Shown: positions 49,056 to 58,495, numbered from the stretch's first letter. The stretch is DNA of 60,979 bases from an uncultured Anaerolineaceae bacterium (GCA_964435005.1 CAYSXA010000002.1:1-60979); one strand, 5' to 3'. The notes: generated by a model not told the origin, from the sequence alone. Program-made: numbers and translations.

Positions 49056-49739
49056 TCATTCTAAAGAGACCAGCCCTGTACGAATGGCAAACTTCACCAG
49101 TTCGGTGCGAGAATGCAGGTTCAGCTTCGCCATGATGCGTTCGCGGTGACGGGCTACGGTCTTCGGGCTGATGCCCAACCGCTCGCCGACCTGAGAATTG
49201 GTCAGTCCTTCCGCTACCAGTTCGAGCACCTGACGCTCGCGTTCAGTGAGCACCTCCAAGCCCGGATGCGGTTCATCCTTTTCCCTGGACAAAGCCGCCC
49301 GCTCGCTCAGGCGGCGGTAGTCTTCCAGCAACCAGCGCGCCAGCGAGGGTTGCAGGTAAACATGCCCTGCAGCCACAGCCCGGATAGCGTTGACCAGCTC
49401 ATCTGGCGCAGCACGCTTGGAAAGGTAACCCGATGCACCAGCGGCCAGCATCTCAAAGAAGTATTGCTTGTCCTCGTGCACGGTGAGCGCCAGCACCGGA
49501 CACTGGGCACCCATCTCCCGCAACCGTCGTGTGACCTGGATGCCATCCAGCTCCGGCATGGTAATGTCCATCAGGATCACGTCCGGACAGACCTCTGTAG
49601 CGACCTGTAAAGCTTCGACACCGCTGGCCGCCTCAGCGACCACGACGATCTCCTCGTGGGTTTCCAGGAAGGTACGCAATCCGGCACGCACCACCTCATG
49701 GTCGTCCACCAGCATCACGCGGATGGGTTCTTCCGTCAT
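49056..49739 (-). CDS. NarL/FixJ (LuxR-type HTH) response regulator
   Basis: REC domain VMLVDDHE...ILMDITMPELDG. C-terminal LTERERQVLELVAEGLTNSQVGERLGISPKTVARHRERIMAKL. Confidence 0.9.
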   Translation of the reverse strand: MTEEPIRVMLVDDHEVVRAGLRTFLETHEEIVVVAEAASGVEALQVATEVCPDVILMDITMPELDGIQVTRRLREMGAQCPVLALTVHEDKQYFFEMLAAGASGYLSKRAAPDELVNAIRAVAAGHVYLQPSLARWLLEDYRRLSERAALSREKDEPHPGLEVLTERERQVLELVAEGLTNSQVGERLGISPKTVARHRERIMAKLNLHSRTELVKFAIRTGLVSLE

Positions 49740-51214
49740 TCACCTTCCTCCTCGATCGGCTCCAGCCGGGCGGGAAGCCTGGCGCGGATGCGTGTTCCCC
49801 GTCCGGGAGCACTGTCCACCTCCAGCGTACCGCCGACTGCTTCCACTCGTTCCTGCATGCCCATTAACCCCCAACTCCACTCCGAACGCGGCTTTTGCTC
49901 CAGGTCAAAGCCAACGCCCTGATCACGCACTTCCAATTGTACTTCGTCTTCGCCGAACACAAGGCACACCTCCGCCTGATCCGTGCCCGCGTGGCGCACC
50001 ACGTTGGTCAGCGCCTCCTGTACGACACGGAAGATCACCGTTTCCAGTGTGGGATCGATCCGTCGGGATGCCTTCTGGACGTTCAGAGCGGTGCGCAAAC
50101 CGAGGTGGTAGTGCAGGTCTTCAACCAGACACTCCAGCGCGGGGATCAGACCCAGGTCGTCCAGTTGCGCCGGGCGCAGATCGTGCACCAGGTGCTGCAG
50201 GCGGCGGGCAACCTGATCGCCCAATGTACGGGCTTGTTGCAGATGATACGTCGCGGCCAGATTGTCCTTCACATGGTTTTGCAAGGCCGCCAGATGCAGG
50301 CTGAAGGCGGTCAGCGTCTGGGCAGTCTCGTCGTGCAACTCGCGCGCAATGCGAGCGCGTTCGTCTTCCTGCGCCTGGACGATGCGGCGTAGCAGTTCAC
50401 GACGCAGCGCCTCGCGGTGCACCAGTTCTCGCAGGCGCGCCTGCTGCGCCTCTTCCATCGCCTGACGGCGCTCCTGCTCGGCAGCCTGAATGGCATGCAA
50501 CAAACCGAGCGCCATGCCTGCCGCCAACACCGTCCGCACCACTTCCATCCGCATCCGCAGGATCTTCCCAATGCCGATCGCGTTCAACCAATCGGGAGAC
50601 TGCCAGCGCCCAGGCTGGACAAGCACCTGAGAGAGCGCGTACAACGCAAAGCAGAGCGCCGCCCACAGCAAACCTCGAGCCAGGGACGCGCGATTCTCGG
50701 CGATCAGCTCGCGGGCGCGGTGGCGCAGGGCAAACGCCGCCAGCAACGCCCCCGGCGCACCCAGACCGTAGCGCGCCAGACGATCAGCCTGGAGAAGCAA
50801 AGCCTCTGGTGGGAGCGGCTTCAGCAACGCAATTCCCAGCAGGACAGCCAGGTAAAAGAAAAGCAACCCAACGCCCACCCAGACGTCCCGCGCAGCGAGG
50901 CGGCGCGGCGGGTAGAGCACCTGCACTCCATAGGCCACCAGCGAGAGGAATGAAAGCACCAGCATGCCCACACGTAGCCAGGGTAACCAGGGAGGAAGGA
51001 ACCAACCCTGCCCCGGCTCCAGTTGCAACGCCAGCTCCACCCACTCGTGCAACCCATGCAATGCACCGAACACCGCCAGCGGCAAGAGGACACGCGCAGC
51101 GGCCAACCGGGGCGCGCGTCCCATTTCCAGCCCGAGCAGCGTGCCCAGCAGGACGAACGCCAGCCCGTAGGCCAGATAGATCGCAAACATGGTGGGGGAT
51201 AAGACGGCTTCCAT
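49736..51214 (-). CDS. membrane-embedded sensor histidine kinase (HisKA_3 / NarX-DesK type)
   Basis: About 6-7 N-terminal TM helices with only short loops, H-box RIARELHDETAQTL, HATPase_c (VVQEALTNVVRHA ... DQGVGF). ATGA overlap with the regulator gene. Confidence 0.85.
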   Translation of the reverse strand: MEAVLSPTMFAIYLAYGLAFVLLGTLLGLEMGRAPRLAAARVLLPLAVFGALHGLHEWVELALQLEPGQGWFLPPWLPWLRVGMLVLSFLSLVAYGVQVLYPPRRLAARDVWVGVGLLFFYLAVLLGIALLKPLPPEALLLQADRLARYGLGAPGALLAAFALRHRARELIAENRASLARGLLWAALCFALYALSQVLVQPGRWQSPDWLNAIGIGKILRMRMEVVRTVLAAGMALGLLHAIQAAEQERRQAMEEAQQARLRELVHREALRRELLRRIVQAQEDERARIARELHDETAQTLTAFSLHLAALQNHVKDNLAATYHLQQARTLGDQVARRLQHLVHDLRPAQLDDLGLIPALECLVEDLHYHLGLRTALNVQKASRRIDPTLETVIFRVVQEALTNVVRHAGTDQAEVCLVFGEDEVQLEVRDQGVGFDLEQKPRSEWSWGLMGMQERVEAVGGTLEVDSAPGRGTRIRARLPARLEPIEEEGE

Positions 51215-51253
51215 TTGTACTCATTGTACCCCATTCACAACACAGGAAAATGT

Positions 51254-51286
51254 GTCAAATGTCCTGCCATCAATAGGACATTTGAC
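51254..51286. promoter_or_regulatory. perfect 12-bp inverted repeat GTCAAATGTCCT-9 nt-AGGACATTTGAC; candidate operator
   Basis: Read directly in the 234-nt, visibly AT-richer divergent intergenic region between the kinase gene and the first cytochrome gene. Confidence 0.4.
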
Positions 51287-51448
51287 CCTCTCATCTATCT
51301 TTAATGTCGGGTATGATAGTTGTGGATTGGGTTATTTACCCCATCACCCAAGTGGGTCCTGTTCAAAGGAGGTGAAGTATAACCAGACTTTGACAATCCC
51401 TCGAACCACTTTGCACCACAAGTTTTTCGTTGAGAAGGAGAATGCCGT

Positions 51449-52720
51449 ATGAAGACCAAATGGTTCCTGTTCCTTGTGTTACTGGTGGCTGGCGCGCTGG
51501 TGTTCAGCGCGTGTGCTGGCCCCCAGGGGCCGGAAGGCCCACAAGGCCCCGCTGGTCCGCCCGGGCCGCAGGGCCCCGCTGGTCCGCCAGGCAAGGACGC
51601 CACGGCGGCTCAGCAATACGTTGGCTCCGAGAAGTGTGGCGAATGTCATGAGGCCGAGTACGAGAAGTTCGTGAAGTCCGGCCACCCCTACAAGCTGACC
51701 AAGATCGAAAACGGTCAGCCGCCGGAGTATCCCTTTGACGCAATCACTGGCGGCGTGCCCACCCCGCCGGAAGGGTACACCTGGGCCGACATCTCCTACG
51801 TGATCGGCGGCTTCGGCTGGAAGGCGCGCTTCCTGGACAAGGAAGGTTACATCATCACCGGGCCCCCGGGCACGCGTGGGGACAAGGCCGCGGCGGAGGG
51901 CTACGTCAACCAGTACAACTTCGCCAACGAGGTGGTCGGTAAAGAGGCTGGCTGGGTGCAGTACCACATCGGCGATGAAAAGCCCTACACCTGCGGCACC
52001 TGCCACACCACCGGCTACGATCCCGAGGGGCACCAGGATGACCTGCCCGGCATCGTGGGCACCTGGGCCTTCCCTGGCGTCCAGTGCGAAGAGTGCCACG
52101 GCCCTGGTAGCCTGCACAGCGAAGACCCCTACGGTGTGCCCGTTGTCGTGGAGCGCGCCTCGCAATTGTGCGGACGCTGCCACCTGCGCGGCGACCCGGC
52201 AGAGATCGACGCCAAGGGCGGCTTCGAGAAACACCACGAGCAATACGAAGACCTGCTGAACTCGAAGCACTTCGCGATCTCCTGCGTGACCTGCCACGAT
52301 CCGCACGCCTCGGCGATCTATGCCGACCCGAACGTCAACCCGAACAAGTCCATTCGCCAGACGTGTGATACCTGCCACTGGCAAAGCGCCAAATACCAGA
52401 AGACTGACAAGCACACCGGCGTGCAGTGCTACGAGTGCCACATGCCGCCAATGGCGAAGTCGGCCTGGGGCAATACGGACACCCTCACCGGGGACATCCA
52501 CTCCCATCAGTTCTCCATCAACACGGATCCCAACGATCCCCAGTTCACCGAGGATGGCAAGTACGTGATGCCATACATCACCCTGGCCTACGCCTGCCAG
52601 TGGTGCCACGATGGCGACAAGGCCTCCACGCAGGACCTGACCACCCTGGCCGATATGGCAAAGGGCTACCACATGCCGCCGGTTGAGACCGCGCCGACCA
52701 CTGAAACTACAACACCGTAG
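51449..52720 (+). CDS. octaheme c-type cytochrome lipoprotein with collagen-like N-terminal stalk
   Basis: 423 aa. Signal peptide with lipobox-like VFSAC. Eight CxxCH: CGECH, CGTCH, CEECH, CGRCH, CVTCH, CDTCH, CYECH, CQWCH. Thr/Pro-rich C-terminal tail. GAAGGAGA Shine-Dalgarno. Confidence 0.85.
   Translation: MKTKWFLFLVLLVAGALVFSACAGPQGPEGPQGPAGPPGPQGPAGPPGKDATAAQQYVGSEKCGECHEAEYEKFVKSGHPYKLTKIENGQPPEYPFDAITGGVPTPPEGYTWADISYVIGGFGWKARFLDKEGYIITGPPGTRGDKAAAEGYVNQYNFANEVVGKEAGWVQYHIGDEKPYTCGTCHTTGYDPEGHQDDLPGIVGTWAFPGVQCEECHGPGSLHSEDPYGVPVVVERASQLCGRCHLRGDPAEIDAKGGFEKHHEQYEDLLNSKHFAISCVTCHDPHASAIYADPNVNPNKSIRQTCDTCHWQSAKYQKTDKHTGVQCYECHMPPMAKSAWGNTDTLTGDIHSHQFSINTDPNDPQFTEDGKYVMPYITLAYACQWCHDGDKASTQDLTTLADMAKGYHMPPVETAPTTETTTP
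51518..51598 (+). repeat. nine uninterrupted Gly-X-Y (collagen-like) triplets; 9-nt periodic DNA with a 17-nt exact direct repeat
   Basis: GPQ GPE GPQ GPA GPP GPQ GPA GPP GKD (aa 24-50). ggccccgctggtccgcc occurs at 51545-51561 and again at 51572-51588. Confidence 0.85.
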
Positions 52721-52742
52721 CTCTGGCGGCTACACACCATAT

Positions 52743-52780
52743 GATGCGGGGGGGGCGGGCACACCCCACCCCCCCGCATC
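52743..52780 (+). repeat. G-run/C-run hairpin between cytochrome genes 1 and 2
   Basis: GATGCGGGGGGG ... CCCCCCCGCATC: a 12-bp perfect stem with a 14-nt loop that can pair further (ggg/ccc). Confidence 0.6.
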
Positions 52781-52800
52781 TGGTTCCAGGAAAGGTGCCT

Positions 52801-53946
52801 ATGGTGCAAGCAACAAAATCCCGGCTGTGGCTGCTACTGATCCCTCTGCTTCTGGTGGGATTGGGGCGCGTGTCGCAGGCGCGGGCTGAAGGCGAAGGGC
52901 CGTTGCCACCGATTCCTCTGCCGACCAGTGTCCCGATGAGCAACGACCAGTGTCTGTCATGCCACATCACACCCTTCATGTATCGCACCCTGCCCGATGG
53001 ATCGCAGATCAACCTGACGCTGGATCGAATCCTGTTCAACACCTCGGTACACGGGCGAGAAGGGCTGTCCTGCGTGCAGTGTCACACAGAAATCACCGGC
53101 TTCCCACATCCGGAGCTCACGGTGGAGAGCCAGCGGGAACTGACCATTCAGTTGAACCGCGCCTGCGCGACCTGTCACGTCGGTGAAGCAGAACGTTACC
53201 GACAGGGCGATCATGCCCGCTTGCTGACAGAAGGGAACACAGACGCCGCCGTGTGCTCCGATTGCCACGGAGCACACCACCTGGAGGAATTCGGCGGTGC
53301 ACGCAGCAAAATCTCAGCCGCATGTCGGCAATGCCATGCCGAGATTTACGATGTGTACCGGGACAGCGTGCACGGCAAAGCGCTGATCGAAGAATTCAAC
53401 CCGGACGTGCCCACCTGCATAGATTGCCATAGCAACCACGCGAACGCAGGGCCAGCACAGCGGTCCTCTTTCCTCCTGTTCTCTCCGCAGATTTGCGCCC
53501 GATGCCATGCGGACGAAGAACTCATGGCGCGCTACGAGATCAACACCAACGTCTTTGAGACTTACGTGGCCGATTTCCATGGCACCACGGTGACCATCTT
53601 CGAGCAGATCGCGCCGGATCAGATCGTGAACAAGCCCGTATGTGTGGACTGTCACGGCGTGCACAACATCCTGCCACCTACCGACGAGAACAGCTCGGTG
53701 ATGAAAGACAACCTGGTGGAGACCTGCCGCCGCTGTCATCCAGAAGCCAATCTGAACTTCCCGGATGCCTGGATGAGCCATTACACACCTGACTGGAAAC
53801 ACACCCCGCTGGTCACGCTGGTGCAGTGGTTCTACAACATCGTGATCCCGCTCACCATCGGTGGGATGACTCTCTTCGTGGTCACCCATGCATGGCGCAC
53901 CCGCGTCCGTCGCCGAGTGGATACCCGGAAGGAGGGAGGCTCATGA
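52801..53946 (+). CDS. nonaheme c-type cytochrome with C-terminal membrane anchor
   Basis: 381 aa from the ATG at 52801. Signal peptide ending SQARA. Nine CxxCH: CLSCH, CVQCH, CATCH, CSDCH, CRQCH, CIDCH, CARCH, CVDCH, CRRCH. C-terminal TM WFYNIVIPLTIGGMTLFVV. Confidence 0.85.
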   Translation: MVQATKSRLWLLLIPLLLVGLGRVSQARAEGEGPLPPIPLPTSVPMSNDQCLSCHITPFMYRTLPDGSQINLTLDRILFNTSVHGREGLSCVQCHTEITGFPHPELTVESQRELTIQLNRACATCHVGEAERYRQGDHARLLTEGNTDAAVCSDCHGAHHLEEFGGARSKISAACRQCHAEIYDVYRDSVHGKALIEEFNPDVPTCIDCHSNHANAGPAQRSSFLLFSPQICARCHADEELMARYEINTNVFETYVADFHGTTVTIFEQIAPDQIVNKPVCVDCHGVHNILPPTDENSSVMKDNLVETCRRCHPEANLNFPDAWMSHYTPDWKHTPLVTLVQWFYNIVIPLTIGGMTLFVVTHAWRTRVRRRVDTRKEGGS

Positions 53947-55103
53947 GCGTCCCGGAGAAATTCGAGCGCTTTTCGCCCATTCGACGCTTTGAGCATTGGG
54001 TGATGGTGGCCTCGTTCACCGCCCTGGCATTCACTGGCCTGCCGCAGAAGTACATGGACTTGCCGATCTCGCTGGCGGTCCTGCGCGCGGTAGGCGGACT
54101 GGAGACCGCACGCGTGATCCACCGCGTGGCCGCGGTGATCTTGATGCTGATCTCCATGGTACACATCGGTTCGGTGCTACACGACTGGTATGTGAAGCGC
54201 CTTCGGGCGTCCATCATGCTGGGGAAGCAGGATCTGATCGACGCGATCGAGTATCTGCGCTACAACCTGGGACTGCGTCCCGAACCACCCAAGATGGGTT
54301 GGTTCACCTTTGACGAAAAAATCGAATACTGGTCGTTGATGTGGGGCACCCTGATCATGGTGCTGACCGGCTTCTTCCTCTGGAATCCGATCACGGCAGC
54401 TCGCCTTTTTCCTGGCGAATGGATCCCGGCAGCCAAGACCGCGCACGGATCCGAGGCGCTGCTGGCGGTACTGGCGATCCTGATCTGGCACACCTACCAC
54501 GTGCACCTCAAGCACTTCAACAAAAGCATGTTCACCGGTTACTTGACGCGGGAAGAGGTAGCCCAAGAACACCCGCTGGTGCTGGAACACCCACCGCAGC
54601 CCGCACCGTTCCCGGCAACCGAGCGGCACAAACGGCAACGCACCTTCCTGGCAGTGTACCTCATCCTGTGTCTGCTGTGGCTGGGCGGGGTGACCTGGTT
54701 CGTCACGGTCGAGCAAACGGCGACCAGTGCGCCAGAGCCGATCCCCGACATCGCTCAGGTCGAAGCTTTCGCGCAACTCACCCCCACGCCGCTCCCTCAG
54801 CCAGCGAATCTGGAGGAAGCCACCGCCCGTTACGGCACCACCTGGGAGGGCGGCATCGGCGCGTTGCTCAGCAGTAAGTGTGGTCGTTGCCATACGCCGC
54901 GCCTGGGTGCTCGTCATCTGGATTTAACCACCTACGCCGGCGCACTGGCCGGCGGCGATTCAGGGCCGGCGGTTGTCCCCAACTCCCCTGGCAGCAGCCT
55001 GGTGCTGATCTGGCCGAACCTGGAAGACCATCCGGCCCACTTAACCCCGCTGGAACGCGCCGCCGTCTGGAGATGGATCGTTCACGGCGCGCCCGAACGT
55101 TGA
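53943..55103 (+). CDS. FdnI/HydC-type b cytochrome (4 TM) fused to a fifth TM and an extracytoplasmic monoheme c domain (PSCyt1-like)
   Basis: - ATGA overlap with the previous gene.
- RFSPIRRFEHWVMVASFTALAFTGLP is typical of prokaryotic cytochrome b561 / formate dehydrogenase gamma.
- Conserved His in TM1, TM2 and TM4.
- C-terminus LLSSKCGRCH...GGDSGPAVVPNSPGSSL...WIVHGAPER. Confidence 0.8.
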   Translation: MSVPEKFERFSPIRRFEHWVMVASFTALAFTGLPQKYMDLPISLAVLRAVGGLETARVIHRVAAVILMLISMVHIGSVLHDWYVKRLRASIMLGKQDLIDAIEYLRYNLGLRPEPPKMGWFTFDEKIEYWSLMWGTLIMVLTGFFLWNPITAARLFPGEWIPAAKTAHGSEALLAVLAILIWHTYHVHLKHFNKSMFTGYLTREEVAQEHPLVLEHPPQPAPFPATERHKRQRTFLAVYLILCLLWLGGVTWFVTVEQTATSAPEPIPDIAQVEAFAQLTPTPLPQPANLEEATARYGTTWEGGIGALLSSKCGRCHTPRLGARHLDLTTYAGALAGGDSGPAVVPNSPGSSLVLIWPNLEDHPAHLTPLERAAVWRWIVHGAPER

Positions 55104-55107
55104 GCCC

Positions 55108-55155
55108 CTTCCCCCGGTGCTGACCGAGGCAGGCCGCACCGGGGGAGGACTTTTT
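55108..55155 (+). terminator. terminator-like hairpin with T5 tract between the b-cytochrome and NapC-like genes
   Basis: 13-bp stem (one G-U) CTTCCCCCGGTGC ... GCACCGGGGGAGG followed by ACTTTTT. The AGGAGGAGG Shine-Dalgarno of the next gene follows. Confidence 0.55.
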
Positions 55156-55169
55156 AGGAGGAGGACACC

Positions 55170-56873
55170 ATGGCGCTGAAATCACTGTGGGAGGTAATGA
55201 AGAAAGGCCAGATCTGGCTGCGCCTGGCGCCGTTCATCGCCCTGGCCGCGATCCTGGCAGTAGTGCTGTATGGCGGTATTTACGCCTGGACGTACACCAA
55301 CTCAGCGGAATTTTGCGGCAGCACCTGTCACACCATGCCGCCAGAGTACAGCGCCTATCAGCGGTCGCCGCACGCGCGGGTGCAGTGCGTCGAGTGTCAT
55401 CTAGGGCGCGACATCGTGACCAAACAGTTCACGCGCAAGGCCGGCGACCTGCGGCATGTGCTCGCCACCCTGACGCGCGACTACGAGTTCCCCATCTTCG
55501 CCAAAGAGATGCGCCCGGCGCGGGAGACCTGCGAGAAATGTCACTACCCGGAAAAATTCTCAGACGACAGCCTGCGAGAAATCCAGCGTTACCTACCCAA
55601 CGAGGAGAACGACCACGAAAGCATCTTCCTCATCCTGAAGACAGGCGGCGGGTCGAAGCGCGAGGGGCTGGGCAAAGGGATCCACTGGCACATCGAGAAT
55701 CCCATCCTTTTCCTGGCCACCGACGAATTGCAGCAAAACATCCCTTACGTGCGGGTGGTGCACGAAGACGGCACGTTCACCGAATACTACGACGTGACCT
55801 CAGGGTTCACACCTTACGACGTGGAACGCAAGCCGCTGCAACGCATGGACTGCATCACCTGCCACAACCGGGTGACACACCGCATCCTCGCACCCGATGA
55901 CGCGGTCGATCAGGCGTTGAGCAAGGGACTACTCCCCAAACTCCCCGACATCCGTCGTCAGGCGGAGAACTGGCTGCGTCAGCCGTTCACTTCGGTAGAC
56001 GAAGCGCAGGCAACTCTGGCGGAGCAGGTGCCAGCTTTCTATCAGCAACATTACCCTGATGTGAGCGCCGAGGATGTGCAACAGGCCGTCTCTGTGCTGC
56101 AAGAGATGTACGCCCGCCTGTACTTCCCGGAACAGAAAACGGACTGGCAAACGCACCCGGACAACCTGGGGCACCGCACATCGCCGGGTTGTTTTCGCTG
56201 CCACGACGGCAAACACATGACCGCCACCGGCGAAGCCATTCGACTGGAATGCAACCTGTGCCACTCCGTGCCAGTGATTTCCCAGGAAGGGGAACGGGTG
56301 GCCCGAATCGAGATCGTGCGCGGCCCGGAGCCGGTCTCGCACACCCACTCCAGCTGGATCAGCCTGCACGGCCAGGTGCTCGACTCGTCCTGTCAGGAAT
56401 GTCACCCGCCAGCCAGTCCGGATGTGGATTACATCCAGCTGGAAGGAAAACTGCCCTCGGACGGTTCCTTCTGCGGCAATCCGATGTGTCATGATCGGAA
56501 CTGGCAATATGCCGCCTTCGATGAGCCCGCCTTGCAGCCGTTATTGGATCAACAACTGTACATCCTGCTGAACACCAGCCCTTACCTGTTGGAAGGCGTG
56601 CCGCGCACCTACGAAGGCACCTTCAAGGCAATCTTCGACGGGCGCTGTGTTTTCTGTCACAGCGAGCCGGACGCTAAGGCCGACCTGGACATGAGCACCT
56701 ACGAAGGCATCCTGAGAGGGGGCAAAAACGGCCCTGGGATCGCACCCGGTGACCTGAAGGCCAGCCTGATCTGGCAACGCCAGACGCGCCGCAAGGCGCA
56801 CTTCGGTCAGATGCTGGACGACGAATTGGAAGCCCTGCGTGACTGGATTCTGGCCGGCGCGCCGGAAAGATAA
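55170..56873 (+). CDS. NapC/NirT-like membrane-anchored multiheme cytochrome with C-terminal PSCyt1-like domain
   Basis: 567 aa. N-terminal TM. NapC-like EFCGSTCHTM (CxxxCH) + SPHARVQCVECH + CEKCH + CITCH, then CFRCH, CNLCH, CQECH, CGNPMCH (CxxxxCH), CVFCH. C-terminal end is WILAGAPER. Confidence 0.8.
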   Translation: MALKSLWEVMKKGQIWLRLAPFIALAAILAVVLYGGIYAWTYTNSAEFCGSTCHTMPPEYSAYQRSPHARVQCVECHLGRDIVTKQFTRKAGDLRHVLATLTRDYEFPIFAKEMRPARETCEKCHYPEKFSDDSLREIQRYLPNEENDHESIFLILKTGGGSKREGLGKGIHWHIENPILFLATDELQQNIPYVRVVHEDGTFTEYYDVTSGFTPYDVERKPLQRMDCITCHNRVTHRILAPDDAVDQALSKGLLPKLPDIRRQAENWLRQPFTSVDEAQATLAEQVPAFYQQHYPDVSAEDVQQAVSVLQEMYARLYFPEQKTDWQTHPDNLGHRTSPGCFRCHDGKHMTATGEAIRLECNLCHSVPVISQEGERVARIEIVRGPEPVSHTHSSWISLHGQVLDSSCQECHPPASPDVDYIQLEGKLPSDGSFCGNPMCHDRNWQYAAFDEPALQPLLDQQLYILLNTSPYLLEGVPRTYEGTFKAIFDGRCVFCHSEPDAKADLDMSTYEGILRGGKNGPGIAPGDLKASLIWQRQTRRKAHFGQMLDDELEALRDWILAGAPER

Positions 56874-56891
56874 CCACGTCTACAAAACCGC

Positions 56892-56933
56892 ACAGGGCAC
56901 AGAGGGTGGTACTCTGTGCCCTGTCTTTATTTT
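56892..56933. terminator. bidirectional intrinsic terminator between convergent genes
   Basis: 13-bp perfect stem ACAGGGCACAGAG-ggtggta-CTCTGTGCCCTGT followed by CTTTATTTT. On the other strand it is followed by GCGGTTTTGT. Confidence 0.75.
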
Positions 56934-58495
56934 GTCTCCAGCTTGAACGTCCAGGGGACGTCCGGGTCGTAATGGATAATCCGCCGGTCGGGGAAGGCAT
57001 CCGCCAGCGCGGCGTCGGCGGACGAGCCGCGACTGACAGCAAAGATGAACGGCGTAGTCAGGTAGGGGTCTTCCAGGTCGAGCAGCGCGCCGTACTTCGT
57101 CCAGTGATTCGCGTGCACGATGACCAGCGCCGGCGTGAGCGCCCGCGCTTCGGCGGTGCGGAAGGGCATCAGCCGTTCCGCCGAGATGCCGTACAGACCG
57201 GCCATGCTCTCCAGGCGAGCAGGGAGATAGCCCACCAGGTTTACCGCAAACAGCAGTGCAAGAAATGCGAAGGTCGCCAGAGGGCGCACCTTGCGCCAGC
57301 CACGGCGCGGAGCAGGGACGTCGGTGAGGCGCAGCGGCCACCCCGCCAGCCGCACGAACCCCAGCGCCGTCAGCAGACTGACGCCAAACAGTCCCTCGTA
57401 ATAGTATCGCGGCCCAAACAGCCATGCTCCCACCCAATAGGCCAGGTACACCACCACCAACGAAAGAGGCACCGACGCGGCCAGCAACACCCTTCGCCAG
57501 CGACGGTGGTCGAGCAACCCCGCTGCCAGCGGGATCAGGGTCAACGGCCCCCAGCCGAGCACGTCCCACAAGCCGACCTGCAGGCTGAAGCGCGTGTTCA
57601 CCCAGGCCTGGTGCAGCGTGTGACCTTCGGGACGCACGCCCACGCCCGGCCCAAAGCCCACCGTGTCATACGGCCACCACAGGGTGTACGGATTCCGGAA
57701 AGGGTCTCCGGTCAACGCCCCCTGCCAGACCAGATGGAAGAAAGCCAGCATCAGCGCCAGCGCACCGACCAGCGCTACCCGCCCGCGCACCGCCGGGCGG
57801 CGCAGCAGCAGCCACAACCCATGCAGCGCGAAGGGCAACGCCACGCCCACGGCAGTCAACGGGCGGGTGAGCGCCAACAACCCCAACGCCATCCCGGAGA
57901 CCACCGCCGGCAACCAGGCGTGCACGCCACACCGCTGCCCGTCGGAGGCGTCCAGCCAGCCGATCACGAAGATCAGCGTAAGCGCCAGCCCCCACGGATG
58001 CGAGAGCAGTGAACCGCTGTTCATCAGGAAGAAGGGCGAGGTCAGGGTGACCAGCGCGGCGAGCAGCCCGACAGTCTCACCAAACAGTTTTTCCCCCAGG
58101 CGGAAAATCAACCACACGGCCAGCCCGCCGAGCAGCGGGTTGACCAGCCAGCGCCACCCCAGGCGCACGCCCAGCGAGAGCAACGCCGGCCAGCCAAGCG
58201 GATACTTGCCAAACCGCTGACCCTGGTAGTCCACCACGAACGGCACCATGAAACTTTTGGGGTGCGGCGGCGAAGGGATGGTCAGGTCGCCGTGCGCCAG
58301 CGTCCGCGCCTGCCAGACGAAAGCGACCTCGTCTTCAATGTGCGGGATGCGCTCGAACACCCGCGCGGTGACCCAGGCGCCCATCAGGGCGGCGAGGGCG
58401 GCGAGGAAGAGGGCAAGCCAGAGCGTTGGTTGGCTGGTTGCCTGGTTATCTGGTTGCACTGGTTGGGTTGGTTGTGCTGGTTGCGGTGGTTGCAC
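56927..58495 (-). CDS. GT-C fold membrane glycosyltransferase (GT39/ArnT-like), third copy, with N-terminal QPx repeat
   Basis: 522 aa from a GTG start. Polytopic. The loop-1 motif IPHIEDEVAFVWQA (DE) is typical of ArnT/PMT families. N-terminus QPPQPAQPTQPVQP. Confidence 0.7.
   Translation of the reverse strand: MQPPQPAQPTQPVQPDNQATSQPTLWLALFLAALAALMGAWVTARVFERIPHIEDEVAFVWQARTLAHGDLTIPSPPHPKSFMVPFVVDYQGQRFGKYPLGWPALLSLGVRLGWRWLVNPLLGGLAVWLIFRLGEKLFGETVGLLAALVTLTSPFFLMNSGSLLSHPWGLALTLIFVIGWLDASDGQRCGVHAWLPAVVSGMALGLLALTRPLTAVGVALPFALHGLWLLLRRPAVRGRVALVGALALMLAFFHLVWQGALTGDPFRNPYTLWWPYDTVGFGPGVGVRPEGHTLHQAWVNTRFSLQVGLWDVLGWGPLTLIPLAAGLLDHRRWRRVLLAASVPLSLVVVYLAYWVGAWLFGPRYYYEGLFGVSLLTALGFVRLAGWPLRLTDVPAPRRGWRKVRPLATFAFLALLFAVNLVGYLPARLESMAGLYGISAERLMPFRTAEARALTPALVIVHANHWTKYGALLDLEDPYLTTPFIFAVSRGSSADAALADAFPDRRIIHYDPDVPWTFKLETK

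Follow-up and report, generated by a model that had tools for sequence, protein, structure and literature searches.

Bacteria of the Anaerolineales and Ardenticatena encode many multihaem cytochromes, and extracellular electron transfer has been proposed for them (PMC7399161, PMC5808234, 10.1101/2021.08.23.457424). How the multihaem cytochromes of Anaerolineae are wired to the quinone pool is not stated in the accessible portions of the literature that we found, and the accessible portions of the same three reports name no quinol module for Anaerolineales or Ardenticatena. Which proteins, then, could provide this connection? Here, we address the question with a 60,979-nucleotide stretch of DNA from an uncultured Anaerolineaceae bacterium (GCA_964435005.1, CAYSXA010000002.1:1-60979; the whole stretch is referred to as the window), in which two adjacent plus-strand genes, 52801-53946 and 53943-55103, code for cytochromes of 381 and 386 residues, designated P0001 and P0002, respectively.

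P0001 and P0002 are best read as a split member, or a near relative, of the CbcL-type oxidoreductases. We propose, with a probability of roughly 0.6, that the two proteins assemble into a single membrane complex that would act as a quinol:multihaem-cytochrome c oxidoreductase of the CbcL/MtoC/MtrH kind and whose subunits come from two translationally coupled genes. Its function would most likely be quinol oxidation for extracellular electron transfer.

In CbcL (GSU0274), nine CX2CH motifs occupy the N-terminal half (residues 30-279) and are followed by six helices of the HydC/FdnI type (PMC6295460, PMC9129911). The protein has two b haems, and all of its c haems, including those reported for the periplasmic domain (PMC9129911), are bis-His ligated (PMC6295460, PMC9129911, 10.1101/2021.04.15.440034); it is a menaquinol oxidase for low-potential acceptors (10.1101/2022.08.31.506072). 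Members of the CbcL/MtoC/MtrH family have 3-23 haem motifs and 416-1034 residues, and most have six helices (PMC6295460). As far as its accessible text goes, the 2018 census of this family lists no CbcL homologue in Chloroflexi and a single ImcH homologue there, a protein of Anaerolinea thermophila with one helix (PMC6295460). Our literature search for CbcL in Chloroflexi or Anaerolineae, which left most subscription journals outside its reach, yielded as relevant sources only this census and a preprint on CbcBA (10.1101/2021.04.15.440034).

The cytochromes P0001 and P0002

The first-pass annotation of this DNA had described the upstream gene product as a nine-CxxCH protein with a C-terminal membrane anchor, and both features are borne out. 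The nine motifs are located at P0001 residues 51, 91, 122, 152, 175, 206, 232, 281 and 309. The AlphaFold2 (AF2) model has a helix at residues 336-379, with the hydropathy peak at 344-362 and a tail containing seven Lys or Arg residues behind it, and the N-terminus is signal-peptide-like. Since relatives align from residues 1-6, the start at 52801 is favoured over an upstream ATG at 52741. In a conservation set of 61 sequences (P0001 and 60 from related loci), every Cys and His of the nine motifs is retained in 97-100%, and nine further His residues (84, 103, 138, 159, 191, 213, 260, 288 and 327) are each retained in 98-100%, which is enough for nine bis-His haems. At the inner end of the anchor helix, residue 363 (53887-53889) is His in the window; His is retained there in 2% of the 61 sequences, and Asp is found in 87%. 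A role of this His as a fifth b-haem ligand, comparable to the helix of CbcA or helix 1 of CbcL, was rejected for the clade because of the predominance of Asp.

P0002 was predicted to be an FdnI/HydC-type four-helix protein, and Pfam agrees (Ni_hydr_CYTB, PF01292, residues 9-199, E 4.8e-14, 53 bits versus a cut-off of 30.1). Its AF2 model (mean predicted local distance difference test score, pLDDT, 81.6) has long helices at residues 12-36, 53-84, 123-147, 160-190 and 225-255, a disordered segment at 256-286 and a confidently folded part at 287-386. Escherichia coli FdnI (1kqf_C) is the sole solved relative by sequence (E 1.2e-6) and, in Foldseek, the sole structure that the model matches significantly (E 1.6e-6, TMt 0.75); VIA-align also ranks it first (Z 16.4 over 205 residues), followed by HyaC (Z 11.2) and CybB (Z 11.1). 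The four-helix fold and the His pattern of FdnI (1KQF/1KQG chain C) recur in P0002. The four histidines required for two b haems are in place on helices 1, 2 and 4: His18, His60, His168 and His183 are invariant in 28 close relatives, and among 121 superfamily b domains they are retained in 118, 121, 121 and 120, respectively. When P0002 is aligned with FdnI, whose haem ligands are His18, His57, His155 and His169, the first three fall on ligands and His183 lies one residue off the fourth. A fifth His of P0002, His74 (54162-54164), located in helix 2 and 14 residues below His60, is retained in 119 of the 121 domains. Since four His suffice for two haems, His74 goes beyond the FdnI-like scheme.

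The resemblance to FdnI raises the question of whether P0002 is simply a formate dehydrogenase gamma subunit or a hydrogenase b subunit. Its relatives carry the JGI name 'formate dehydrogenase gamma subunit', FdnI is its closest solved structure, and the NCBIfam formate dehydrogenase gamma model TIGR01583 matches it with E 1.1e-14. However, this match reaches only 54.9 bits against an equivalog cut-off of 115.85, NF007558 reaches 40.5 against 339, and the NCBIfam hydrogenase b models, which also match, fall far under their equivalog cut-offs; such scores fit a protein that is related, not the same. Furthermore, the constant upstream partner of P0002-type genes is a nine-haem cytochrome (54 of 61 loci, see below), which is also fused to them in nature, and among the four operon and three flanking proteins searched against Pfam and NCBIfam (a search that did not extend to other open reading frames, ORFs, of the window or to the related loci), matches to formate dehydrogenase or hydrogenase were confined to the sub-threshold P0002 hits. 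We therefore regard this explanation as very improbable. P0002 also differs from FdnI in that its partner is a nonahaem cytochrome rather than an Fe-S subunit and in having a fifth helix, an outer c domain and His74.

By likeness to FdnI, the N-terminus of P0002 is probably inside. The charge distribution is consistent with this topology, as about 15 Lys and Arg residues lie on predicted inner segments (the N-tail, loop 2-3 and loop 4-5 with its RHKRQR), versus two on outer loops and none in the linker behind helix 5. Five helices and an inside N-terminus place the CGRCH-containing C-terminal domain outside, as c-haem attachment requires; the outer location that the first-pass annotation had made a condition of its interpretation is thus predicted both by the helices of the AF2 model and by the charge counts. 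A natural fusion of the two proteins, P0139, preserves the topological parity (signal, nine haems, anchor, b domain, helix 5, PSCyt1).

When the pair is compared with the CbcL/MtoC/MtrH family, the N-terminal outer multihaem c part is present, with the gene order c then b colinear with the fusions, P0002 supplies the HydC/FdnI-like dihaem b part with its conserved His, and the six helices are one P0001 anchor and five P0002 helices. What differs is that the c and b parts are not on one polypeptide; they are two ORFs joined by an ATGA overlap. To judge from these counts, the anchor, the four core helices and the additional one would correspond to the six of CbcL, and helix 5 would probably be the sixth CbcL helix. 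Other points of likeness to GSU0274 include nine CX2CH motifs within a periplasmic part of about 250-300 residues that has further conserved His and needs no Met ligands, a HydC/FdnI-type dihaem b part with six membrane helices, the lack of an Fe-S, flavin or molybdopterin partner, and an imcH-like gene nearby. The pair differs from CbcL in having the anchor helix and the first b helix on separate polypeptides, in the PSCyt1-like domain after the last helix, and in its occurrence in Chloroflexota, where the accessible text of the census has no CbcL homologue (PMC6295460).

CbcBA (GSU0593-0594) is similar in another respect, as it also consists of a separate multihaem c subunit with a C-terminal helix and a separate dihaem b subunit in one operon (10.1101/2021.04.15.440034). 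However, the haems of CbcA number seven, and the fourth b-haem His is described as coming from its helix (10.1101/2021.04.15.440034), whereas P0002 has all four; the gene order, the extra helix and the c domain also set the window pair apart. CbcB has no sequence homology with CbcL, according to the same preprint, which also describes many clusters in Geobacter genomes in which a dihaem b gene lies beside a multihaem c gene (10.1101/2021.04.15.440034). Split pairs as such are therefore not new.

In the proposed complex, menaquinol would be oxidised at a quinol site on P0002, and electrons would cross the membrane via haem bC (His18/His183) and haem bP (His60/His168) and leave via c haems on the outer face, namely the nine bis-His haems of P0001. 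The C-terminal helix of P0001 would pack beside the b subunit in the manner of the FdnH anchor in formate dehydrogenase-N; FdnH, the partner of FdnI, has a single C-terminal helix. A further exit could be the single, probably bis-His, PSCyt1-like haem carried on a 30-residue flexible linker after helix 5.

Split and fused members of the family

If P0001 and P0002 are the two halves of a CbcL-like protein, as the first-pass annotation had suggested, both the pairing of the genes and their occasional fusion would be relevant. Among 61 related loci, which derive mostly from Anaerolineae or Chloroflexota metagenome-assembled genomes (MAGs), with a few labelled Acidimicrobiia, Myxococcales or Thermoanaerobaculum, P0001-type and P0002-type genes stand side by side in 54; many of the loci end at contig borders. 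In the window, the ATGA overlap occurs exactly where it had been placed, behind a ribosome-binding-site-like sequence. Of 58 related pairs, 46 likewise have the stop codon of the first gene overlapping the start codon of the second, 21 of them by 4 nt and 18 by 8 nt; these counts are approximate, as starts were chosen by a nearest-start rule.

The natural fusions P0139, P0142, P0177 and P0348 support the view of the two genes as halves of a c::b cytochrome. P0139 (779 residues) is an exact fusion of both window genes, with 53% identity to P0001 and 45% to P0002, and P0142 and P0177 are fused in the same way, minus only the PSCyt1 end. Four additional nine-haem c::b fusions (P0380, P0388, P0405 and P0432) match P0001 over nearly its full length (31-35% identity, E 6e-45 to 5e-59); their identity to the P0002 b core is 38-40% (E 2e-39 to 3e-50). 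No true c::b fusion was found among the 61 related loci. An apparent 666-residue fusion in a Thermoanaerobaculum MAG (L059:5771-7771) proved to be an artefact in which a run of N joins two frames.

A search for longer proteins gave 55 hits. In 19 of these, a b domain and helix 5 precede four to six CxxCH at the C-terminal end; in 19 or 20, a multihaem part is fused N-terminally to the b part; five have a b domain and helix 5 followed by 9-12 haems, four are histidine kinases with a b-like domain, and seven match PSCyt1 alone. The kinases (P0149, P0151, P0152 and P0153; 912-914 residues, with HAMP, dCache, HisKA_3 and HATPase domains) begin with a membrane domain that resembles cytochrome b and has 38-43% identity to P0002. 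Two of them carry NCBI MAG names, Chloroflexi and Dehalococcoidia, and a possible role in haem-b or quinone sensing would be worth a look.

The superfamily as a whole was surveyed by a full HMMER scan of 1.84 billion representatives with P0002 residues 1-260 as the query, which returned 1863 proteins at E<=0.001, of which 1163 reach E<=1e-10 and 213 reach E<=1e-30. The best 150 matches, after removal of 36 partial ones, left 114 complete representatives. In 51 of these, the b domain and helix 5 are followed by C-terminal c haems (nine having a single motif, as in P0002), and 38 consist of the b domain only. Helix 5 without any haem c was found in 11 proteins, an N-terminal c part with at least 3 haems in another 11, C-terminal c haems without helix 5 in two, and two N-terminal CxxCH before the b domain in one.

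A FastTree phylogeny of 121 b cores (midpoint root; only rows with a BLAST match spanning residues 25-195 were kept) has two sides separated by a branch with support 96. P0002 lies on the side dominated by proteins with b domain, helix 5 and c haems, where P0139, P0142 and P0177 form a small, nested, starred clade. The nine-haem fusions are on the other side and are mixed there with rows of the 'b only' type. The label 'fused' needs nine changes on this tree, with at least eight forced by the starred branches, and these repeated changes indicate that fusion and fission are frequent in the superfamily. The survey of split versus fused forms that had been called for thus identifies the split state as the majority one around the window gene, in a large family; judged by sequence, it is the usual state and not an oddity of this very large family.

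Within Chloroflexota, 33 of 401 sampled genomes, the genome of the window included, had a match to P0002 at E<=1e-20, as did 17 of 24 genomes of one family of the same order. In ESM Atlas, the matches listed were c3-family clusters only, mostly of Chloroflexota, and none had a b domain. In six related loci (L021, L023, L031, L038, L061 and L056), a tandem duplication of the module was observed, with a second pair of a nine-haem gene and a short b gene directly upstream of the main one; the upstream b ORF has 241-303 residues and no CxxCH in five of these loci, and in L056 it has 512 residues and a partial b match.

The genome that contains the window (3.03 Mb, 291 contigs, 97.7% complete) also has a 910-residue c::b fusion on contig 13 (19899-22631; L064:2900-5629), with seven CxxCH, an anchor helix with a His and a Ni_hydr_CYTB match (E 5.6e-25). 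It is preceded by a gene (L064:1364-2881) for a 506-residue, eight-haem Cytochrome_cB (PF11783) protein. The fusion was rejected as a paralogue of the P0002 family, its match to P0002 being marginal (E 0.002). It may belong to the cbcB-cbcA fusions, which the CbcBA preprint mentions for Chloroflexi (10.1101/2021.04.15.440034).

The fifth helix and the tethered haem domain

The first-pass annotation had described a fifth helix and a C-terminal c domain as a unit grafted onto the b subunit. Both are indeed present, with CGRCH at P0002 residues 313-317, and it is the graft interpretation of the helix that did not hold. The same helix occurs in relatives that lack a c domain (the 11 of 114 representatives noted above), as well as in the fusion P0142, which has no PSCyt1 end. 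What varies is the slot after helix 5, which holds nothing, one PSCyt1-like domain, two to six tandem domains with Pro/Thr/Ala-rich linkers, or 9-12 haems. In P0143, P0144, P0146, P0147 and P0148, this slot is filled by 9-12 CxxCH in repeated Pro/Ala/Thr-rich units that are not PSCyt1.

The assignment of the domain to PSCyt1 stands in part. Pfam PF07635 matches residues 313-354 (E 3.6e-6, 27.9 versus 22 bits), an alignment that takes in positions 1-42 of the 59 in the profile; when the whole genome was searched, the score was 31.3 bits. PF01292 and PF07635 occur together in 108 of the best 120 relatives listed. As in PSCyt1, the CxxCH is followed by L-[DR]-L..., then GG.SGPA[VI]VPG.P..S and a closing W[IV]..GAP helix, and the domain is 31-44% identical to the planctomycete-type PSCyt1 of P0164 and P0172-P0176. 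The part that did not stand concerns the canonical Met, which is replaced by His. The planctomycete-type loop has 'MP', whose Met we take to be the likely sixth haem ligand in canonical PSCyt1; the Anaerolineae-type loop is shortened, has no Met and has an invariant His363 ('HP' or 'HF'). C313, C316, H317 and H363 are invariant in 28 of 28 sequences, a pattern that suggests bis-His ligation and a low potential for this haem. Moreover, the domain is N-terminal in planctomycete proteins of the PSCyt1/PSD1 type, and in P0002 it is C-terminal; the P0002-type domain is attached to a cytochrome b and, in a neighbouring gene, to an NrfH-like cytochrome. Literature naming PSCyt1 describes no cytochrome b fusion in its accessible portions, most subscription journals again lying outside the search.

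The neighbouring gene, on which the first-pass annotation had not reported this domain, is 55170-56873; its product ends in a domain 37% identical to that of P0002 over 90 residues (E 5e-16), both closing with GAPER. In the genome of the window, PSCyt1 scores above the cut-off only in these two proteins; a weaker match (18.8 bits, sub-threshold) was observed on contig 1 (9681-9782), in a 254-residue frame near two multihaem ORFs.

The restriction of the domain to the extreme C-termini of two adjacent gene products, together with the coverage of only positions 1-42 of the profile, could also mean that its role lies in docking or assembly, by joining the b and NrfH/ImcH-like modules or fixing them to the wall, rather than in electron relay. 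We consider this improbable, although less so than the formate dehydrogenase explanation. A mere docking fold need not retain CxxCH and a candidate sixth ligand, which are invariant here, and relatives in which two to six tandem domains, or multihaem domains, occupy this position are more in keeping with a wire than with a dock. A tethered carrier has a counterpart in QcrC of the Bacillus subtilis menaquinol:cytochrome c reductase, in which a monohaem c domain is fused behind the membrane helices of a b-type complex that oxidises quinol, in a single-membrane bacterium. QcrC differs, however, in belonging with an unrelated b family of the bc1/b6f type, in having no multihaem partner and in its His/Met ligation.

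Operon context and direction of electron flow

The four cytochrome genes 51449-52720, 52801-53946, 53943-55103 and 55170-56873 lie in a row on the plus strand, and the operon neighbours of the P0001/P0002 pair are cytochromes only (Table 1).

Table 1. Features of the cytochrome operon and its surroundings in the window
Feature	Position	Strand	Basis or remarks
LuxR/GerE-type response regulator	49056..49739	-	Pfam Response_reg E 3.7e-32, GerE E 1.5e-22; divergent from cytochrome operon
Membrane histidine kinase (HisKA_3 + HATPase_c)	49736..51214	-	Pfam; N-terminal membrane sensor part
Octahaem lipoprotein-like cytochrome	51449..52720	+	8 CxxCH; Pfam MtrC/MtrF domain II/IV E 3.1e-13; Gly-X-Y after lipobox-like Cys
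P0001, nonahaem c subunit	52801..53946	+	Signal peptide, nine predicted bis-His haems, anchor helix ~53806-53889, basic cytoplasmic tail
Ribosome-binding-site-like aggagggagg (53930-53939) and ATGA stop/start overlap (53943-53946)	53930..53946	+	Translational coupling
FdnI/HydC-type four-helix dihaem cytochrome b core, P0002 residues 1-215	53943..54587	+	Conserved His 18, 60, 74, 168, 183
Fifth transmembrane helix, P0002 residues 225-255	54615..54707	+	AF2; RHKRQR precedes on inner side
Pro/Thr/Ala-rich disordered linker, P0002 residues 256-286	54708..54800	+	pLDDT <50 over 259-281; no K/R
PSCyt1-like monohaem c domain, P0002 residues 287-386	54801..55103	+	Pfam PF07635; CGRCH at 54879-54893
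NrfH/NapC-headed ImcH-like multihaem cytochrome, 567 residues	55170..56873	+	Cytochrom_NNT E 5.7e-12, PSCyt1 E 5.2e-9
Hairpin with 13-bp stem, T runs on both strands	56892..56924	.	Between convergent genes; consensus match only

The hairpin after the last gene is likely the end of the operon, and no comparable hairpin was found between the four cytochrome genes. A scan of 51000-57200 for sigma-70 promoters gave 0 sites, versus a shuffled mean of 1.3.

The 55170-56873 protein combines a single N-terminal helix with CX3CH (residue 49), seven CxxCH and one CX4CH, and it matches TIGR03153 with E 5.3e-19, under the cut-off. Likened by description, it shares with ImcH a NapC/NirT-like head, an atypical CX3CH near the helix and further CX2CH, and differs from ImcH in ending in a PSCyt1-like domain. 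Relatives of this gene are found in 25 of the 61 related loci, 22 of them with the PSCyt1 end. The octahaem gene has counterparts in 17 of the 61, and its product is probably a terminal reductase or else carries electrons at the distal end of the path. A Gly-X-Y run (51518-51598) follows its lipobox-like Cys (Pfam Collagen E 2.8e-4, sub-cut-off). The presence of the octahaem lipoprotein and of the NrfH/ImcH-like cytochrome in the operon suggests that the proposed complex most likely feeds a path out of the cytoplasmic membrane.

Some of the relatives also have the kinase and regulator genes beside the operon, and in several of them the divergent arrangement is the same. A relative of the regulator is present in 17 of the 61 loci and a full-length relative of the kinase in nine, six of the latter upstream and divergent as in the window; no Pfam family matched the 280-residue membrane sensor part of the kinase. 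In the genome of the window as a whole, 24 ORFs have at least 3 CxxCH, with up to 26 in one ORF, and there are two Cytochrom_C_asm matches (Ccm-type maturation genes); ResB (PF05140) was not found in this 97.7% complete assembly.

The position of the octahaem gene directly upstream of the pair allows another interpretation, in which the pair is the quinol-oxidising anchor of a reductase for a soluble substrate (nitrite, hydroxylamine or sulfur oxyanions) and the octahaem protein is catalytic. Structural comparisons of P0001 offer something to this view. Its sequence profile has distant solved matches that include NrfA-type nitrite reductases, together with MtrA of the Mtr complex (E 6.5e-11) and a 278-residue cytochrome c (28pb_A), and the top Foldseek row of its AF2 model (pLDDT 71) is hydroxylamine oxidoreductase 6t5e (E 0.013), followed by MtrA (E 0.038, prob 0.99) and NrfB. 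However, no Foldseek match of this model reaches E<=0.001. In addition, all eight haem motifs of the octahaem protein are plain CxxCH; among the Pfam and NCBIfam matches listed for it at E<=0.1, octahaem tetrathionate reductase, hydroxylamine oxidoreductase and NrfA families are all absent, and its best Pfam match is the MtrC/MtrF haem domain; and its gene is present in 17 of 61 loci, compared with 54 of 61 for the pair. An anchor for a soluble-substrate reductase is thus unlikely.

Only slightly less unlikely is that the same complex runs in reverse, so that electrons from an outside donor (Fe(II), a cathode or a partner cell) would reduce the quinone pool; MtoC of Fe(II) oxidisers has been proposed to work in this way. 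Homologues of CbcL/MtoC/MtrH are known from Fe(III) reducers as well as from Fe(II) oxidisers (PMC6295460), a Chloroflexota isolate carried out both anodic and cathodic electron transfer (PMC5808234), and the DNA of the window occurs in sequencing runs from a hydrothermal vent and from a microbial mat, with no RNA run among those listed. Among solved structures, the best fold match of P0002 residues 285-386 is FoxE (5mab_A, Z 8.8, root-mean-square deviation 3.4, 97 residues aligned), a putative Fe(II) oxidase, but this is a fold match at a middling score. Furthermore, the predicted bis-His ligation of all ten c haems suggests low potentials, better suited to quinol oxidation than to Fe(II) uptake, and ImcH-like genes have so far been tied only to quinol oxidation in the accessible text of the census (PMC6295460).

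Several points weigh against a CbcL-type quinol oxidase and keep its probability near the value given above. The likeness to CbcL was drawn from architecture, published descriptions and the stand-in fusions P0380, P0388, P0405 and P0432, and not from the sequences of GSU0274, MtoC or MtrH. No curated family claims P0002, as the NCBIfam scores illustrate, and a simple FdnI-like scheme with two haems leaves His74, which has no FdnI counterpart in the pairwise alignment, unexplained. The direction of electron flow is not readable from sequence, and no feature setting quinol oxidisers apart from quinone reducers was found in the 2018 census (PMC6295460). Finally, the octahaem neighbour could act enzymatically on a soluble substrate.

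With the split CbcL-type oxidoreductase as the preferred reading, a further, tentative proposal concerns the shared haem domain. Multihaem cytochromes are plentiful in Anaerolineales, for which no Gram-negative envelope is assumed (PMC7399161), and if Chloroflexota, as published work presumes, lack an outer membrane, all carriers would need tethering. We speculate, as a possibility that we would not favour over its negation, that the CbcL-type and ImcH-type modules of Chloroflexota, which represent the two main kinds of quinol oxidoreductase in extracellular electron transfer, each acquired the same linker-tethered bis-His variant of PSCyt1, that this built-in mobile haem replaces the soluble periplasmic carriers of Geobacter, and that both modules pass electrons to a single octahaem lipoprotein held on a collagen-like stalk. 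Where relatives have as many as five or six domains on Pro/Thr-rich linkers, these might form a beads-on-string wire through the wall.

The pair described here is a common variant of a known family that was not described within the literature searched, and not a new kind of machine; the distinctive trait of the locus is the tethered PSCyt1-like haem domain, which it has in common with the ImcH-like neighbour. Anaerolineae are abundant in sediments, mats, aquifers and bioelectrochemical reactors, and the locus provides a concrete and widespread candidate for their quinone-pool link, in the form of a split CbcL-type pair beside an ImcH-like gene, both with a tethered haem domain of the low-potential type. 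The split pair also supplies markers for genome surveys, as searches for the fused form or for a protein of CbcL length miss it. Overall, the locus offers a testable idea of how cells without a closed periplasm may replace soluble electron carriers.

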